Below are positions 1 through 7,830 of a stretch of DNA of 64,000 nt, in pieces; positions within the stretch are counted from its first letter, which is position 1, and the number at the start of each line of letters is the position of its first letter. The DNA is taken from IMG/VR virus record IMGVR_UViG_3300042261_000588, positions 1 to 64,000 of that record; one strand, 5' to 3'. Source of the DNA: a virus. The translations under genes and the position numbers were made by a program. The notes below the pieces were generated by a model. The model had not been told where the DNA came from, searched no databases, and was given only the letters and a program-made list of their open reading frames with translations.

Positions 1-43
1 CCGAGGCGGAAGGACGTGGCAAGGTCACGCAAGTACTCGTGAC

Positions 44-101
44 GCCGAACGACAAAACTCAGTTGCAAGCGAAGTGAGTCAACTGGAGCGCCTTGTTGGC
101 G
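44..101 (-). mobile_element. attC-like recombination site 1 (array A)
   Basis: Minus strand reads CGCCAAC, 5-nt spacer, GCT[C]CAGT ... ACTGAGT, 6-nt spacer, GTTCGGC. This is attC geometry with the extra base at position 4 of L''. Confidence 0.7.
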
Positions 102-124
102 CTCCGCTTTGAAAGGAAACGACG

Positions 125-310
125 ATGAACAAGGAAGATGTGAAGATAAGTTTTGTATTCATCGTGCTTGCGCTGCTGGTTGTCGGGCCGTCGCTGTTGT
201 TGCTCATGCAGCCCTATTTAGAGGCGAGGGCGTTCAACAAGTTCACCAGCGGACCGAAGGCGACCTATTGGGACGCACTGTGGTCCGAATTGCGAGTGAT
301 GCCGAAATGA
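125..310 (+). CDS. small membrane-anchored hypothetical protein (cassette cargo)
   Basis: RBS AAAGGA, hydrophobic N-terminal stretch, lies between attC-like sites 1 and 2. Confidence 0.7.
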   Translation: MNKEDVKISFVFIVLALLVVGPSLLLLMQPYLEARAFNKFTSGPKATYWDALWSELRVMPK

Positions 311-582
311 GTAGCGCCGAACACCGTGCTCTCCGTTTCCGGGGAGCGAGGAGAACCGAAATGACCGCACCTGAAACGCCTGCCACTCCCCGGCATACGG
401 AGGAGCAAATGGTTCTGCACCCATATCAACGCATGTTCTTGGCCGCGCCTCCGAACGTGCAACTACGGCTCATGTACGGTCGCAAGGCAGGCCGCCAGTC
501 TTGGATGGAAATGCGTCGAATCTGCCAAGCGTATCTCGAAGAGTACATACAGAACACAAGGTTGAGGCTCCGAAATGAGTGA
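307..582 (+). CDS. hypothetical cassette ORF (alternative start 361 inside the attC loop)
   Basis: ATGA overlap with the upstream stop; GAGGAG RBS plus ATG361 lie within the palindrome loop. Confidence 0.55.
   Translation: MSSAEHRALRFRGARRTEMTAPETPATPRHTEEQMVLHPYQRMFLAAPPNVQLRLMYGRKAGRQSWMEMRRICQAYLEEYIQNTRLRLRNE
316..418 (-). mobile_element. attC-like site 2 (array A)
   Basis: + strand GCCGAAC ... GCTCTCCGT/CCGGGGAG ... CTCCCCGG/ACGGAGGAGC ... GTTCTGC; extra C at L'' position 4 on the minus strand. Confidence 0.75.
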
Positions 583-625
583 GCGAATCGAGCAGATGAA
601 GGTAGCATCGGACGCCTTGCTGGGT
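549..625 (-). mobile_element. attC-like site 3 (array A), one core mutated (GCT instead of GTT)
   Basis: ACAGAAC-5 nt-GTTGAGGCT ... AGCATCGGAC-5 nt-GCTGGGT; the gene junction ATGAGTGA lies in the loop. Confidence 0.55.
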
Positions 626-772
626 GTTCCTGACCCATGCAAGACGTGTTCCGACAGGAACCAAGACCCAGACGATCCTAAAACCAACTGCTACCACTGC
701 GGGCCTCCAGCGTGGGAATGCCATGACGTTTTCTTTGCGGACGACGATACACCCAACTTAGGGCTAAAGTAG
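575..772 (+). CDS. small Cys-rich hypothetical protein (cassette cargo)
   Basis: CxxC...CxxC; start inside attC-like site 3; cassette ends at ACACCCAAC 749-757. Confidence 0.6.
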   Translation: MSERIEQMKVASDALLGVPDPCKTCSDRNQDPDDPKTNCYHCGPPAWECHDVFFADDDTPNLGLK

Positions 773-826
773 CCAGATGCTTCTGGTACTGCTTGACGGG
801 AGGGAGAGGTCACCAAAAATTTTTTA

Positions 827-854
827 TTGTATTCTGGAAGGAATCTGGTAATGT
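827..854 (+). promoter_or_regulatory. sigma70-type promoter for the ncRNA/tmRNA cluster
   Basis: TTGTAT (827-832), 16 nt, TGn-TAATGT (849-854); AT-rich UP-like tract upstream. Confidence 0.5.
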
Positions 855-875
855 AATGATGACGAGTGGATAGAT

Positions 876-1069
876 GGACATCGGTATTCCGCTCGATGAT
901 GCAGGTTGCCTAGCTGCTGCAAGGTAGGAGCGATGTTCAACTCGGTAATCGTCGGCGAAACTGTTGATTGTTCTGGTTGCCAACCGAGTATAAAGAAGTG
1001 ACGTAACAATCTGCTGGAAGTAGGCTTAGTCCGAAACCTCTCATCGGGTGCATGAAAGCCCGACTGTTC
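876..1069 (+). ncRNA. candidate ~190-nt rod-shaped ncRNA (6S-like size and shape; class unassigned)
   Basis: Nested pairings 876-884/1060-1069, 891-899/1041-1049, 903-907/1035-1039, 908-912/1021-1025, 923-928/1010-1015, 940-946/983-989; no credible ORF. Confidence 0.45.
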
Positions 1070-1078
1070 TTTGATAAT

Positions 1079-1486
1079 GGGGGCGTAAGGTATTCGACGT
1101 GTGGTGTTGAAACCTGATGACATGCCGAGGACTCAGGTTGGCCTCGTAAATCTTTCCTGAAAAACACTAACAGGCAAAACTGTTGGATCGGTGACTCGCT
1201 GGTTCTTCGGTCCGGCTTCGGCTGCTCCGATGCTGGCGGCTGCTTAACAGCACACCTCCAAAACGCCAGAGTCTCCACGACATCTGGATGAGGATTAAAG
1301 AATGTGGGTGACGATCTGCAAAGACAGATGATACCGGGAATGAGACGCACCGGGGTAGATAGTCAAAGACATCTCGGAAAGACGGGATAGACCAAGTCCG
1401 GGGTCGATAAGAATCGTGAAGAAGCATGTGTATGTTAGGTAGTATGTGTCATGCGGACAGGAGTTCGACTCTCCTCGCCTCCACCA
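1079..1486 (+). ncRNA. ssrA: tmRNA
   Basis: 5' GGGGGCG pairs with 3' CGCCTCC-ACCA with a G3:U70 Ala determinant; T-arm AGGAG-TTCGACT-CTCCT; 5' TTCGAC motif; tag frame 1173-1247 encodes (A)GKTVGSVTRWFFGPASAAPMLAAA*. Confidence 0.96.
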
Positions 1487-1510
1487 TTTTTCTGAAAGTC
1501 GAAAAAAGTG

Positions 1511-1540
1511 TTGCAAACTTTCAGAGATAGAGAGTATAGT
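1511..1540 (+). promoter_or_regulatory. sigma70-type promoter upstream of the hairpin RNAs and tRNA
   Basis: TTGCAA-18 nt-TATAGT; the -35 box is enclosed by a 9-bp inverted repeat TCTGAAAGT (1491-1499)/ACTTTCAGA (1517-1525). Confidence 0.6.
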
Positions 1541-1542
1541 AT

Positions 1543-1638
1543 TCTTGTGAACTAATCAAACTCCTTCAGTGTTGAGATACTTCTATAGAAAAGACAGCGT
1601 TCTCAATGCGACTATTGGAGTTTGATTAGTTCACAAGA
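1543..1638 (+). ncRNA. candidate Y-like RNA 1
   Basis: Perfect 22-bp terminal stem, internal loop CC-TTCA-G / C-GACTATT-GG, 9-bp inner stem with G:U pairs; close to the Ro60 gene. Confidence 0.55.
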
Positions 1639-1641
1639 TTT

Positions 1642-1739
1642 GGTTGATGCCTTCAGTTTGTGGTTGGATGGACGCTTTAGCGGCCAAGATCAGAGATTTT
1701 AATGGGAAAAAACACCACAAACGTCTATCGGTGTCGGCT
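1642..1739 (+). ncRNA. candidate Y-like RNA 2
   Basis: 10-bp G:U-rich terminal stem, matching internal loop CC-TTCA-G / C-GTCTATC-GG, perfect 9-bp inner stem GTTTGTGGT/ACCACAAAC. Confidence 0.55.
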
Positions 1740-1745
1740 TTTGAT

Positions 1746-1822
1746 TGCGGGGTGGAGCAGCCAGGTAGCTTAGCAGGTTCATAACCTGAAGGTCGCAGGT
1801 TCAAATCCTGCCCCCGCTACCA
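1746..1822 (+). tRNA. tRNA-Met(CAT), initiator (fMet)-like
   Basis: 77-nt cloverleaf close to bacterial tRNA-fMet, 1:72 mismatch (U:U), A11-U24, encoded CCA. Confidence 0.95.
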
Positions 1823-1827
1823 ATCAA

Positions 1828-1868
1828 AGCCGGACATCTATAAAAGGATGTTCGGTTTTTTGTTTTTT
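1828..1868 (+). terminator. intrinsic terminator-like hairpin after the tRNA
   Basis: AGCCGGACATC/GATGTTCGGTT stem followed by T tracts. Confidence 0.6.
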
Positions 1869-1965
1869 AGGATGGCAATGTTCTATGTGGAACATTGATA
1901 ATAAGGGTGCCGTAAGGCACAGAATTGGTGGCAGAAATGTCACCTTCAAGGAGGATGATAGAAGA

Positions 1966-3720
1966 ATGAGCACGTTCAAGACGGTAGCGAGGAAGAGGGC
2001 TGCGGCGGCACGTCTGCCGAGCAACGCAAAGACTGTTACGGTCAACCGGGCAGGTGGAGTGGCGTTTGAGGTCTCTGACCCGGCGTTGAAGCTCATCACC
2101 ATGACTGGTGGTTCGTTTTTCGCAGAGCCGAAGTTCTATAATGCTGCGGTCTGTGTGCCGAAGCGTGGGACTGGTGGCAAGTTCGATAAGCTGGCCGAGA
2201 GGCTGGAGATCGTGGATGGCAAGCTGAAGGGCTTTATCACCTGTGATGAGCTCCCGGAAACTGCCCGTGAGGTGATTTCTACGGCTTTGGATGTTGCACG
2301 GGGTAAGACTCCCGAGGACATTCTGGCTATCGCCAACTGGCTTCGTAACGAGATGAACATCCGTTTGACCCCGCAGGTCTTATTGGTGTTGGCCTCTCAT
2401 GTTGATGGCACGAAGCCTTTGGTACGGAAGTACGCTCCGTACATCGTGAAGCGTCCGGACGAGGTGAAGACCTGTTTGCTGGTTCATCGGTTTCTGTTCG
2501 GACTGAAGAATCTGCCGAATAGTTTGGCTACCGGTCTGTCTGATGCGGTGGGTAAGTTCGGTGAGCGTGGACTGATGAAGTATGACGACACTGGCTTCCC
2601 GACTTGGAAGGACGTGCTTTGCTGGCTTCCTCGTAAGGCTGGTTGGCCTTTGAATGGTGAGGTTGCCAAGTATTTCATCACCGGGAAGATCGATGACCCT
2701 GCAAAGACTCCGATCATCGCCGCTCGTAAGGAGTTGGCGAAGAAGACGGTGTTTGACGATGAGGCTCGTGATCTGGCGAAGAAGTCACAGGTCAATTGGG
2801 AGGTCTTGCTGTCTCAATTCGGCAAGGAGAAGAATGCGGTGTGGTCGTTCCTGATCAACAATGGTCTGGTCGGTTACATGGCTCTTCTTCGTAACCTGCG
2901 GAACATCATAGAGGCGAAGGTTTCCAAGGATGTCATTCAGAAGGTGTCGGACAAGCTCTCGAACAAGGACGAGGTTGTGAAGTCGAAGCAACTGCCGTTC
3001 AGGTTCCTGTCTGCGAAGACGGCACTGGATGGGATGTCTGGCGAATTCGATCTTGCAGACTTATCGGAGGTCGAGGCAGCTATTGAACTAGCCGCAAACG
3101 AGTCATGTTACAATATCCCGGTTATTCCGGGTGAGACCATGCTGTTTGCTGATAACTCTGGTTCAATGACGAGTAACACTCTGTCTGAGAGGTCGGCTCG
3201 TGACTGTCGTGATGCAGCGAACATGCTTGCGGGAATCGCAGCCAAGGCGTGCGAGAGGGCATATTTATTCTCTTTCGGAACGAATGTGAAGGAGGTTCGC
3301 TTCGCCAAGACGAATACCGTTATGGGCGTCTGTGAGAAGGTGAAGAAGTCTGGTAATGGGGGTGGAACGAATGGTCATTTGTGCATTGAACACCTGATCA
3401 ATTCGGGTAAGACTCCGGCACGGGTAATCATCCTGACAGACTGCCAGATGTGGGTCGATTGTCAAAATGGTGGTGGTCAGCCGTTTGCAGATGCATGGGC
3501 GAAGTACAGGAAGTCAAGTAAGGCTGCGGCTGAGACTTGGCTCCACCTCGTTCACCTTAACGGGTACGGCGATGCTCCGGTTGATGCCGGGGATCATGTC
3601 AATCAAGTTGGAGGCTTCAGTGAGAAGATTTTCTCTATGATGCTTCAAGCCGAGGGCATTGGAGGAACGGTTGCTCTGCCGACAGTGGAGCAGGTTCGTG
3701 AGAAGTGGACCGTGAAGTAG
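1966..3720 (+). CDS. rsr: Ro60/Rsr-like TROVE + vWA RNA-binding protein
   Basis: N-terminal NRAGGVAF, WLRNEMNIR, KRPDE, GYMALLRNLRNI, KSKQLPFRFLSA; MIDAS DNSGS...GGTN...ILTD; RBS AAGGAGG before ATG1966. Confidence 0.93.
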   Translation: MSTFKTVARKRAAAARLPSNAKTVTVNRAGGVAFEVSDPALKLITMTGGSFFAEPKFYNAAVCVPKRGTGGKFDKLAERLEIVDGKLKGFITCDELPETAREVISTALDVARGKTPEDILAIANWLRNEMNIRLTPQVLLVLASHVDGTKPLVRKYAPYIVKRPDEVKTCLLVHRFLFGLKNLPNSLATGLSDAVGKFGERGLMKYDDTGFPTWKDVLCWLPRKAGWPLNGEVAKYFITGKIDDPAKTPIIAARKELAKKTVFDDEARDLAKKSQVNWEVLLSQFGKEKNAVWSFLINNGLVGYMALLRNLRNIIEAKVSKDVIQKVSDKLSNKDEVVKSKQLPFRFLSAKTALDGMSGEFDLADLSEVEAAIELAANESCYNIPVIPGETMLFADNSGSMTSNTLSERSARDCRDAANMLAGIAAKACERAYLFSFGTNVKEVRFAKTNTVMGVCEKVKKSGNGGGTNGHLCIEHLINSGKTPARVIILTDCQMWVDCQNGGGQPFADAWAKYRKSSKAAAETWLHLVHLNGYGDAPVDAGDHVNQVGGFSEKIFSMMLQAEGIGGTVALPTVEQVREKWTVK

Positions 3721-3741
3721 TCTTTACGGGTAAAACAAAAA

Positions 3742-3779
3742 GGGAGTTGATACTGGAAACGGTATTGACTCCCTTTTTT
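3742..3779 (+). terminator. intrinsic terminator of rsr
   Basis: 14-bp stem, GAAA loop, T6 tail. Confidence 0.9.
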
Positions 3780-3790
3780 CTTTATAGTAA

Positions 3791-3815
3791 TAATTCTTTG
3801 ATATTTTGTATATAG
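3791..3815 (+). promoter_or_regulatory. candidate phage late promoter motif
   Basis: TAATTCTTTGATA-N7-TATAG; similar copies at 6880, 15894 and 54500. Confidence 0.55.
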
Positions 3816-3865
3816 GTGTAGGATCGCACGGTCAAAAGATTGTTCAGAGAAAGGGAGGAATGATT

Positions 3866-4102
3866 ATGGTCTACAGGAGTAATCCGACGGATAAGCAGCA
3901 GAATGAAATCGAAGTAGCAGCCAATGAGGGCGGTATTCCCGTTCTGATGGATGCCAAGACGAGGGTTATTGGAAAGGCTTTGAACACGGCGCCTTTGAAG
4001 ACCAATCATGGTTCTGCGGTTGGTGGAGAGAGAAATAATGCTGGCGTTGTGATCCCGCATTCTGATCGTCCTGGAAAATTTGAAACTCCGGGTAAGGCGT
4101 AA
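3866..4102 (+). CDS. small hypothetical protein, paralog of 54541-54804
   Basis: RBS GGGAGG; YRxNxTDKQQ N-terminus and FxxPGK C-terminus shared with the paralog. Confidence 0.85.
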   Translation: MVYRSNPTDKQQNEIEVAANEGGIPVLMDAKTRVIGKALNTAPLKTNHGSAVGGERNNAGVVIPHSDRPGKFETPGKA

Positions 4103-6916: not shown

Positions 6917-7329
6917 GTGATAGACAGATTAGACAGCATGGCTGCGAAAGTAGCCTTTCAGTTTTTTCGCAAAAGGGCAGCAAGAAGATTTGATCTTCGA
7001 TGCTGTCTTTTCTAATTTAAGGGAGAAGGATAGAGATTACAAGGATGGTCTTGAACAATCAGCCCGTGATTCTTTAAATAAAATGCTGATAAAAGACCTT
7101 ATTGGTAGAGGGCATGATGTCGTATCCGTCGAAATCAGCTTAGGGAAGTATCGTGGATCAAGGTTCGTTACTTCGGCAAAGGTAGCGGTTCGGTTGAAGG
7201 ACATGAAGGATGCAAAGATTTTGGTAAAGGAACTTCAACGGTATCATAGGCCGTTACTCATTGAAGTCATTTGAGGATGGAGTGGCGGTTTACAACACCA
7301 AAGCGGAGGGTAGCCGAAATGAAAGCTGA
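6917..7329 (+). pseudogene. frameshifted hypothetical gene whose 3' end is the cassette insertion site
   Basis: GAGG RBS + GTG6917 (MIDRLDSMAAKVAF); continuity needs +1 shifts at TTTTTTC (~6962-6968) and CTTC (~7233-7236); the final frame reads ...DGVAVYN at the AAC junction. Confidence 0.5.
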
Positions 7330-7380
7330 CGATTGCAAGACAACCACGGGTGAGGCTTACCCTCCCGAGCCTTGTTCGGC
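7290..7380 (-). mobile_element. attC-like site 4 (array B)
   Basis: TTACAAC...CGGAGGGTAGCC / GGCTTACCCTCCCG...GTTCGGC; two extrahelical bases; ATG7319 in the loop. Confidence 0.75.
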
Positions 7381-7600
7381 CTCATGGCGTTTCCGTGTGG
7401 CCTGCGTAGGTTCGCACATTGCCAAGAAATACGGTCTGCTCTGCGTTGACGAAACGCACGGTGGTCACGACCAGCATTACGGTTGGCCTATGCGGTCGAT
7501 AGGGCTGGAGTGGTCATGGCGGCGGAATACGTGGTTTGCAGGGTGGGTATTAAGGCCGAACACGGTGCTGAGGGGCGACGGCCCCGGAAAGGACGCATGA
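7319..7600 (+). CDS. hypothetical cassette ORF
   Basis: GGAGG RBS in the attC arm; stop within the next attC loop; GC-rich. Confidence 0.65.
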   Translation: MKADDCKTTTGEAYPPEPCSASWRFRVACVGSHIAKKYGLLCVDETHGGHDQHYGWPMRSIGLEWSWRRNTWFAGWVLRPNTVLRGDGPGKDA

Positions 7601-7653
7601 CTACACCAAACACGGGCGCCGGGGCCGTCGTACCCTCCGGCACATTGTTGGAC
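7555..7653 (-). mobile_element. attC-like site 5 (array B)
   Basis: GCCGAAC-5 nt-GCTGAGGGGCGACGGCCCCGG / CCGGGGCCGTCGTACCCTCCGGC-5 nt-GTTGGAC. Confidence 0.8.
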
Positions 7654-7830
7654 GATCTTGAAATCGCGCTCGACAAGATATTCTCCCGTAAACGCGAGAG
7701 ACTCATCACTGGCGGTCAAGTCGTCGGCATGAAAATGTGGCGCACTGAGTTCTCCGGACAGGAATACGGCGACGTGCTCGACAAGGTGAACGCGCTGCGT
7801 GACTCCATAGCGGCCAACATCAGACGATAA
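7597..7830 (+). CDS. hypothetical cassette ORF
   Basis: AAAGGA RBS and ATGA overlap inside the attC loop; uses the backbone stop after the AAC junction at 7818. Confidence 0.65.
   Translation: MTTPNTGAGAVVPSGTLLDDLEIALDKIFSRKRERLITGGQVVGMKMWRTEFSGQEYGDVLDKVNALRDSIAANIRR

Follow-up and report, generated by a model that had tools for sequence, protein, structure and literature searches.

In class 1 and sedentary chromosomal integrons, an attC site is made up of R'', L'', L' and R' boxes, and crossover takes place at G|TTRRRY. Clusters of attC sites in phages that lack an integrase were reported only in 2023, from few isolates and mostly in the usual orientation, and five of the six phage sites tested were recombined with the integrase IntI1 (Qi et al., 2023, PMC9892861). 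Insertion of cassettes by IntI outside att sites has also been described (Loot et al., bioRxiv 10.1101/2022.09.11.507474), so that arrangements of this kind are already known. Here, array A was analysed, a series of attC-like sites and small genes at bases 44-757 of a 64,000-base window, which corresponds to bases 1-64000 of a 143,854-base IMG/VR virus contig (IMGVR_UViG_3300042261_000588; classed as linear and estimated to be 67% complete). Array A is probably the end of a cluster of attC sites lacking integron integrases (CALIN) in a freshwater phage, and holds three small attC-type cassettes. An earlier note made from the sequence alone had proposed an integron-like cassette array at this position, and the proposal was largely supported by matches to an attC covariance model and by breakpoints at AAC, with activity of the sites and the recombinase itself presumed.

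The cassettes would extend over approximately 50-321, 322-554 and 555-756, each comprising an attC site and, after it, a small gene encoded on the opposite strand. The plus, coding strand would carry the attC bottom strands, which are those that an integron integrase folds and cleaves, and units would be exchanged at G|TT on the minus strand, equivalent to AA|C on the plus strand, by a host IntI or by a recombinase encoded in the unsequenced third of the phage genome. The upstream gene would usually read the AAC in frame as Asn, and the attC site would give this gene a short tail and a stop codon and the next gene a ribosome-binding site (RBS) and a start codon, so that cassettes would plug into a translationally coupled operon.

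Like Tetrasphaera phage TJE1, for which three attC sites were predicted and two were tested with IntI1 (Qi et al., 2023, PMC9892861), the phage carries attC sites between small accessory genes and has no intI. However, the genes of TJE1 are on the same strand as the attC top strand, each with its attC site behind it, whereas here every site is inverted and genes begin within their own attC site or shortly after it and usually continue across AA|C into the next. Box order, spacers, the additional L'' base (a G on the bottom strand) and the AAC/GTT cores agree with those of cassettes from class 1 and sedentary chromosomal integrons, as do the complementarity of the GTT-side end to the far AAC-side end and the predicted exchange at G|TT. 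Unlike such integrons, no IntI, recognisable attI or Pc promoter was found on the contig, the cassettes are very small (202-272 bp), the genes lie on the bottom strand, the core AAC serves as a codon and the attC site supplies stop, RBS and start. The junction 756|757, which has no attC site beyond it, and a two-unit block that follows TACAAC in a backbone gene resemble the insertions at non-att positions (attG, isolated attC) of Loot et al.; there, however, the targets were bacterial genomes and IntI1 was supplied experimentally, whereas here the target would be a phage and the event is deduced from comparison.

attC-like sites of array A and of the contig

The features of array A and its flanks are as follows.

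1-77, plus strand: 3' end of an upstream open reading frame (ORF) in frame 3; AAC 48-50 is read as Asn (..VTPN|DKTQLQAK*) and the stop codon at 75-77 lies within attC-like site 1
44-101, minus strand: attC-like site 1, with R' 44-50 (GCCGAAC), spacer 51-56, L' 57-63, L'' 82-89, spacer 90-94 and R'' 95-101 (GTTGGCG)
125-310, plus strand: ORF1, a small membrane protein of 61 aa, in putative cassette 1 (50-321)
316-418, minus strand: attC-like site 2, with R' 316-322 (GCCGAAC), spacer 323-327, L' 328-334, L'' 399-406, spacer 407-411 and R'' 412-418 (GTTCTGC)
361-582, plus strand: ORF2, 73 aa, in putative cassette 2 (322-554); its start lies in the loop of site 2, with the RBS GAGGAG at 349-354
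549-625, minus strand: attC-like site 3, decayed, with R' 549-555 (ACAGAAC) and R'' 619-625 (GCTGGGT)
575-772, plus strand: ORF3, 65 aa with two CxxC pairs, in putative cassette 3 (555-756), with its start in the loop of site 3
751-757, minus strand: lone R'-type core (ACCCAAC on the plus strand) that closes the array, with the predicted crossover at 756/757; homology to the locus L010 ends here
1079-1486: transfer-messenger RNA (tmRNA)

The three elements were recovered where the earlier note had placed them, with attC geometry on the minus strand and one mutated core in site 3 (GCT 619-621). On that strand, site 1 reads CGCCAAC / AAGGC / GCTCCAGT ... ACTGAGT / TTTGTC / GTTCGGC, that is, with a 5-nt spacer, an 8-nt L'' carrying an extra C at position 4 (an extra G on the plus strand), a 7-nt L' and a 6-nt spacer, and its crossover is predicted at 49/50. 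Site 2, an imperfect palindrome of 103 nt, reads GCAGAAC / CATTT / GCTCCTCC ... GGAGAGC / ACGGT / GTTCGGC, again with an extra G in L'' on the plus strand, and its crossover is predicted at 321/322. The predicted crossover of site 3, whose L box is weak and whose GTT core is mutated to GCT on the plus strand, is at 554/555. The R boxes are CGCCAAC / GTTCGGC in site 1 and GCAGAAC / GTTCGGC in site 2 (6/7 pairing); in site 3 this complementarity is lost in the window (AGC core) but present in its L010 ortholog.

A covariance model, R1, was built from 14 different class 1 attC sites on plasmids (dfrA1, aadA1, VIM-1, aacA4, cmlA5, dfrA16, CARB-2, IMP-4, qacG2, catB3, dfrA14, dfrA12, gcuF and aadA2), with the pairing of the R box, of the L box with its extra base and of four further pairs set by hand. 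As a first control, 79 kb of plasmid loci were searched, in which R1 matched only true attC sites on the correct strand and gave no false matches in the backbone, the sole off-strand match (14.6 bits) being on the gcuF attC site itself. A tblastn search of plasmids with IntI1 was saturated with class 1 integrons and two further plasmid arrays contained no new cassettes; TJE1 served as positive control, and exactly three matches were obtained in it, located just after orf1-orf3 (23.4, 29.0 and 26.6 bits).

Site 1 was the top R1 match in the 64-kb window when filters were switched off (44-100, minus strand, 23.5 bits, E 0.0012), and the opposite strand gave no match up to E 10. Its score is on par with those of the published TJE1 sites (23.4-29.0 bits), and matches elsewhere on the contig reach about 30 bits. 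Sites 1 and 2 both align to R1 with the extra C at position 4 of L'' and with spacers of 5+6 and 5+5 nt, respectively. The ortholog of site 3 in L010 (858-935) scored 29.7 bits on the minus strand and has an intact GTT core; the window copy differs from it at two positions, both synonymous in ORF3, through which the core and one L-box pair were lost. Two or more clustered attC sites with no nearby integrase, the arrangement that defines a CALIN, are present in array A, where a stretch of 600 bp takes in site 1 and the weaker sites 2 and 3; at a strict per-site threshold only site 1 qualifies. No complete integron (intI, adjacent attI and Pc promoter) was found on the contig.

Along the 143.8-kb contig, nine full-length R1 matches were obtained, all on the minus strand. 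Seven of these lie at 129-142 kb (contig 129412-142267, equivalent to 5412-18267 of L036), and the two best on the contig, at 141681-141752 (30.7 bits, folding probability 0.96) and 142201-142267 (29.6 bits, folding probability 0.70), are near-identical and textbook-like. For comparison, the folding probability of the recombinogenic form was 0.85-0.96 for real and TJE1 attC sites and 0.70-0.98 for strong sites elsewhere in the contig and in its relatives. No R1 match was obtained in 69 kb of sequence from five related loci that carry the TROVE gene, nor at the palindromes at 62.8-63.1 kb and 78 kb of the contig. The cluster at the far end of the contig may run on across the contig ends into array A. 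Separately, two 59-nt direct repeats that are 90% identical and have AAC...GTT ends were observed at contig 77994-78052 and 78292-78350 (3995-4053 and 4293-4351 of L001); the repeats at 77994 and 78292 bracket an ORF of 81 aa and are translated in the same frame (..AHSRAVASRGEAGCS), and R1 matched neither of them.

The earlier note had further described self-matching ends, in which each GTT-side end is complementary to the next AAC-side end. This was upheld for 619-627 with 749-757 (8/9, specific; 9/9 in L010) and for 95-103 with 313-322 (9/9 with one extra base), but not for 412-420 with 547-555, where the complementarity (7/9) is no better than that of cross pairs and is not specific. Genome-wide, 63 GTT...AAC pairs with a complementarity of at least 8/9 were counted, against approximately 38 in shuffled sequence.

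Chance is an extremely improbable explanation of the palindromes and AAC/GTT matches in this region of small genes. For this explanation speak site 3, which has no match, and site 2, which is not significant alone because its E-value is 7 at the scale of 64 kb (0.12 when 1.1 kb is searched), as does a simple scan for AAC...GTT palindromes, with 6/7 pairing of the R boxes combined with folding, which returned 41 candidates contig-wide and was rejected, real sites not being separable from noise; GCCGAAC and GTTCGGC are enriched only about 2-3 times. However, site 1 has an E-value of 0.0012 and orthologous and paralogous sites reach 1e-5 to 1e-9, all matches fall on one strand, control DNA gives none, and breakpoints between relatives lie at the predicted bases.

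Units shared with other loci

DNA similarity between the window and L010 is confined to 558-757 (88.5% identity), and the flanking genes are unrelated. The similarity begins just after AAC 553-555 and halts exactly at AAC 755-757. Minus-strand attC matches were found in L010 at 178-252, 858-935 (29.7 bits) and 1061-1130 (21.0 bits); the block containing the ORF3 unit is bounded by the second and third of these, and the match at 1061-1130 starts with the heptamer at which homology to the window ends. Given these breakpoints and attC positions, the common block is taken to be one cassette with the limits predicted by the minus-strand model, from the C of one AAC to the AA of the following one, inclusive. 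The ORF3 unit thus shows what is asked of a mobile gene cassette, namely presence in different arrays with junctions at the crossover point, both of its L010 junctions being located at AAC.

In each of the further ORF3 homologs in L040-L043, the N-terminus is overlapped by a minus-strand attC match (scores of 34.5, 32.4, 16.5 and 11.7 bits), and similarity to ORF3 ends at the Asn of TPN, which in L040 is where the next attC site starts. Likewise, the locus of the ORF2 homolog, L044, has minus-strand attC matches of 35.6, 19.1 and 13.5 bits, and similarity to ORF2 ends at QN, where an attC match begins. ORF1 homologs fall into six clusters with 56-74% identity, and the contigs of four clusters represent four different genomic contexts. 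In one of these loci, L014, the array around the ORF1 homolog contains attC matches of up to 40.2 bits, and it has in common with the window a GTTGGCG that precedes the start codon by about 30 nt and a CGCC(G)AAC that follows the stop codon. The ORF1 family conserves QPYFEARAFNKFTSGPKATYWDALW..LRV.PK and was seen in loci L014-L024, which are unrelated contexts, some with terminase, primase-helicase or RusA genes.

A second comparison concerns a 521-bp block at 7298-7818, which follows TACAAC (to 7297) within a backbone gene and ends with CCAAC followed by ATCAGACGATAA. The closest relative, L003, reads TACAAC-ATTAGGTAG at the position of 7297 and has no such block, and therefore shows the empty site. 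Set against this empty site, 7298-7818 is best described as an insertion at AA|C, and by this alignment the phage lineage gained the block exactly after AAC. Two weak minus-strand attC matches are associated with it, one spanning the left junction (7292-7380) and one inside (7605-7653). Breakpoints between relatives had been predicted to fall at the AAC cores, and they do so for the ORF3 unit against L010, for the 521-bp block against L003, and at Asn/AAC for L040-L043 and the ORF2 homolog. Comparative evidence of this kind, in which cassettes appear to have moved between phage-borne arrays, is new.

Contigs from the same lakes match the attC stretches only (48-97, 315-414, 360-412 and 561-623), and one match ends at base 50. 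Separately, one contig in each of two lake runs contains a joint that goes back 47 bases (94 to 48); it may represent two copies resembling site 1 in head-to-tail arrangement, or an assembly effect of a repeat family.

Orientation, coding use and recombinase

The earlier note had placed the ORFs on the plus strand, with the sites inverted relative to them, and had predicted that the plus strand is the attC bottom strand. By plus-frame codon position, mismatches to homologs number 3/4/15 in ORF3 and 14/5/24 in ORF1; since the differences fall mainly at third codon positions, the plus-strand ORFs are, by this measure of homologous sequences, real and under coding selection. With the genes on the plus strand, the attC top strand is therefore antisense to them and the plus strand carries the bottom strands, as predicted; all nine contig matches on the minus strand agree with the inversion. 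If the GC skew, which is positive throughout the contig, reflects replication direction, the G-rich plus strand would be the lagging-strand template, an orientation in which attC sites in bacteria fold and are excised more readily (PMC5371416).

Counting all loci, the longest open frame upstream contains the R'-box AAC in about 19 of 24 attC matches. A stop follows the in-frame AAC within 4-26 codons, and six of these stops are independently called gene ends. Asn-Ala is a frequent beginning of the tail, since GGCGTT, the attC consensus, is AAC-GCC when read on the complementary strand. Within the window, the read-throughs are ..VTPN|DKTQLQAK*, ..YIQN|TRLRLRNE* and ..DTPN|LGLK*: ORF2 reads AAC 553-555 as Asn and stops 27 nt beyond the cassette boundary, and ORF3 reads AAC 755-757 as Asn, its tail of four residues and stop coming from the flank. 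The next start is found in or just after the same attC site, with the RBS at 349-354 and ATG 361 for ORF2, and ATG 575, which overlaps the ORF2 stop, for ORF3. As the attC site supplies the upstream tail and stop as well as the next start, it acts as a coding junction. That the crossover core and attC are used as in-frame coding sequence is new, as is the finding that, throughout eight independent contexts, the sites are inverted relative to the genes. Recurrence of this layout in all eight suggests that selection has favoured such a system, and that these are not stray bacterial cassettes.

These coding features also fit an alternative, which we consider unlikely, in which the hairpins are translational-coupling elements of the mRNA, the units are shuffled by homologous or illegitimate recombination at conserved junctions, and the resemblance to attC arose by convergence. 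The elements contain stop, RBS and start (with CCGAAATGA(GT) at 302, 356 and 570), the arms pair with GAGG/GGAGG resembling Shine-Dalgarno sequences, Asn-Ala is read in frame from AAC and the GCC after it, and the contig has no recombinase. Promoter(early)-stem-loop elements (PeSLs) reportedly combine a promoter with a stem-loop terminator and are said to have been proposed to shuffle genes with no dedicated site-specific recombinase. These mobile regulatory cassettes of T4-type phages provide a precedent for junction-mediated shuffling and resemble array A in their small accessory genes, large lytic-type phage, repeated structured flanking motifs and module swapping (Arbiol et al., 2010, PMC2839356). 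Unlike PeSLs, the present elements agree with attC both in sequence and in geometry and have a fixed breakpoint, AA|C, and no terminator-like or promoter-like site was found at any of the three, the sole promoter-like match being at 793-820. Mere coupling elements are further opposed by scores as high as those of the TJE1 attC sites, obtained on a single strand and with the 5/6-nt spacer asymmetry and the additional L'' base reproduced, by the exact AA|C breakpoints, by the insertion of 7298-7818 into a backbone gene at a position where the relative has no junction element, and by site 1, which lies 25 nt upstream of the ORF1 start and holds neither RBS nor start. Roles in RNA and in DNA are, moreover, not mutually exclusive.

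The earlier note had seen no integrase gene in the window, and this extends to the whole 143.8-kb contig, in which PF00589 gave no match at E<=1; no tyrosine recombinase was found in two related virus records that were searched either. It is thus worth weighing whether the sites are real folded single-strand recombination sites that are used by a recombinase of another type and resemble integron sites in appearance only. The absence of IntI from the contig and from the two related records, together with the uniformly inverted orientation and the unusual coding use in all eight contexts, points in this direction. However, neither a serine recombinase nor a Y1 (HUH) transposase was found on the contig, the match to class 1 attC is close in both sequence and geometry (AACAA ... 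GGCGTT), and five of six predicted phage sites of this type were IntI1 substrates (PMC9892861), which makes a non-integron recombinase a very unlikely explanation, less so than chance but more so than coupling elements.

Several observations nevertheless weigh against array A being the end of an attC-type cassette cluster. R1 is home-made, was derived from class 1 sites only and gives rough E-values. The expectation that a covariance model would detect the sites held for site 1 (23.5 bits) and for the ortholog of site 3 (29.7 bits), but not for site 2, which scores just 9.1 bits (minus strand, exactly 316-418), a background level, nor for site 3, which has no R1 match in the window. The folding probability of site 1 is only 0.05; it does not form one hairpin in its minimum-energy structure (minimum free energy, MFE, -7.8 kcal/mol), and an 8-bp GC hairpin at 85-105 competes with it. 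Site 3 (MFE -6.5 kcal/mol) forms no single hairpin either, and site 2 is the sole one of the three to fold as a long hairpin (DNA MFE -18.4/-20.8 kcal/mol; folding probability 0.45). No tyrosine recombinase, serine recombinase or Y1 transposase was found on the 143.8-kb contig, which is estimated to be 67% complete. Integrons do not usually have bottom-strand genes that extend over cassette borders. Four loci with ORF1 homologs, representing three distinct contexts, have no attC match, and similarity to the more distant ORF3 homologs has its left edge within the attC site (residues 9-10) rather than at AAC. Finally, neither an excision joint nor a circular junction was seen over 1-1100 in contigs from four lake runs. 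As site 1 folds poorly, site 2 matches weakly and the core of site 3 is lost, array A is probably an old and partly fixed end of the cluster that has partly decayed.

We tentatively propose, as a serious possibility rather than a probable one, that freshwater viruses carry a distinct, phage-adapted form of integron cassette, in which the gene lies on the attC bottom strand, AA|C falls in an in-frame Asn codon and the attC site encodes the junction. If this were so, cassettes could be inserted and swapped without breaking a translationally coupled operon. The contig represents a large uncultured phage with at least nine attC-like sites; if an integrase acts on these, phages would gain a site-specific means of collecting and reshuffling small accessory genes, and the cassette pools of phages and bacteria could be linked.

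Phage contig and surrounding region

Public runs containing DNA of the contig are lake and freshwater metagenomes. Its longer open frames are overwhelmingly on the plus strand, and it encodes helicase, primase and single-stranded DNA-binding protein (SSB) genes of phage type. The order of the region is the end of the upstream ORF (stop 75-77), ORF1, ORF2, ORF3, approximately 300 non-coding bases, the tmRNA, a tRNA-Met and a gene for a Ro60-like TROVE/vWA protein, so that non-cassette sequence and the tmRNA gene lie beyond the lone core at 751-757. The upstream ORF was called as a gene on L013, which contains the same DNA with 67 extra upstream bases.

Nothing was found for ORF1-3 in Pfam and PHROGs. 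Candidate starts of ORF2 are at 307, 361 and 409, and alignment with its single homolog, the 74-aa protein P0011 (53% identity, query residues 36-84, ending ..QN), favours ATG 361. Homologs of ORF3 are present in L010-L012 (one sequence), in protein record P0003 and in L040-L043, and no relative of ORF3 was found in viral contigs.

A search of a phage collection with bases 1-4000 gave no relative apart from tRNA matches. Seven relatives were found through the Ro60-like (TROVE) gene, and bases 1-860 are absent from all of them, so that they provide no empty site for array A. At gathering thresholds, Rfam identified only the tmRNA and one tRNA in the window, with no curated family over the attC-like elements.

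Several minor observations were made in the same region. The tag of the tmRNA is AHLQNARVSTTSG, and window positions 1079-3720 also hold the tRNA-Met and the Ro60-like TROVE/vWA protein. DNA matches to the tmRNA/tRNA region were seen in most of the seven TROVE-gene relatives (loci L003-L009), one of which, L004, has a twister-P5 ribozyme match at 3448-3524. The non-coding stretch 868-936 upstream of the tmRNA is 87% identical in L004 and L005 (3945-4013), and its surroundings are not conserved. Between the tmRNA and the tRNA-Met, a 90-nt hairpin at 1546-1635 has a perfect stem of 19 bp (TGTGAACTAATCAAACTCC / GGAGTTTGATTAGTTCACA).

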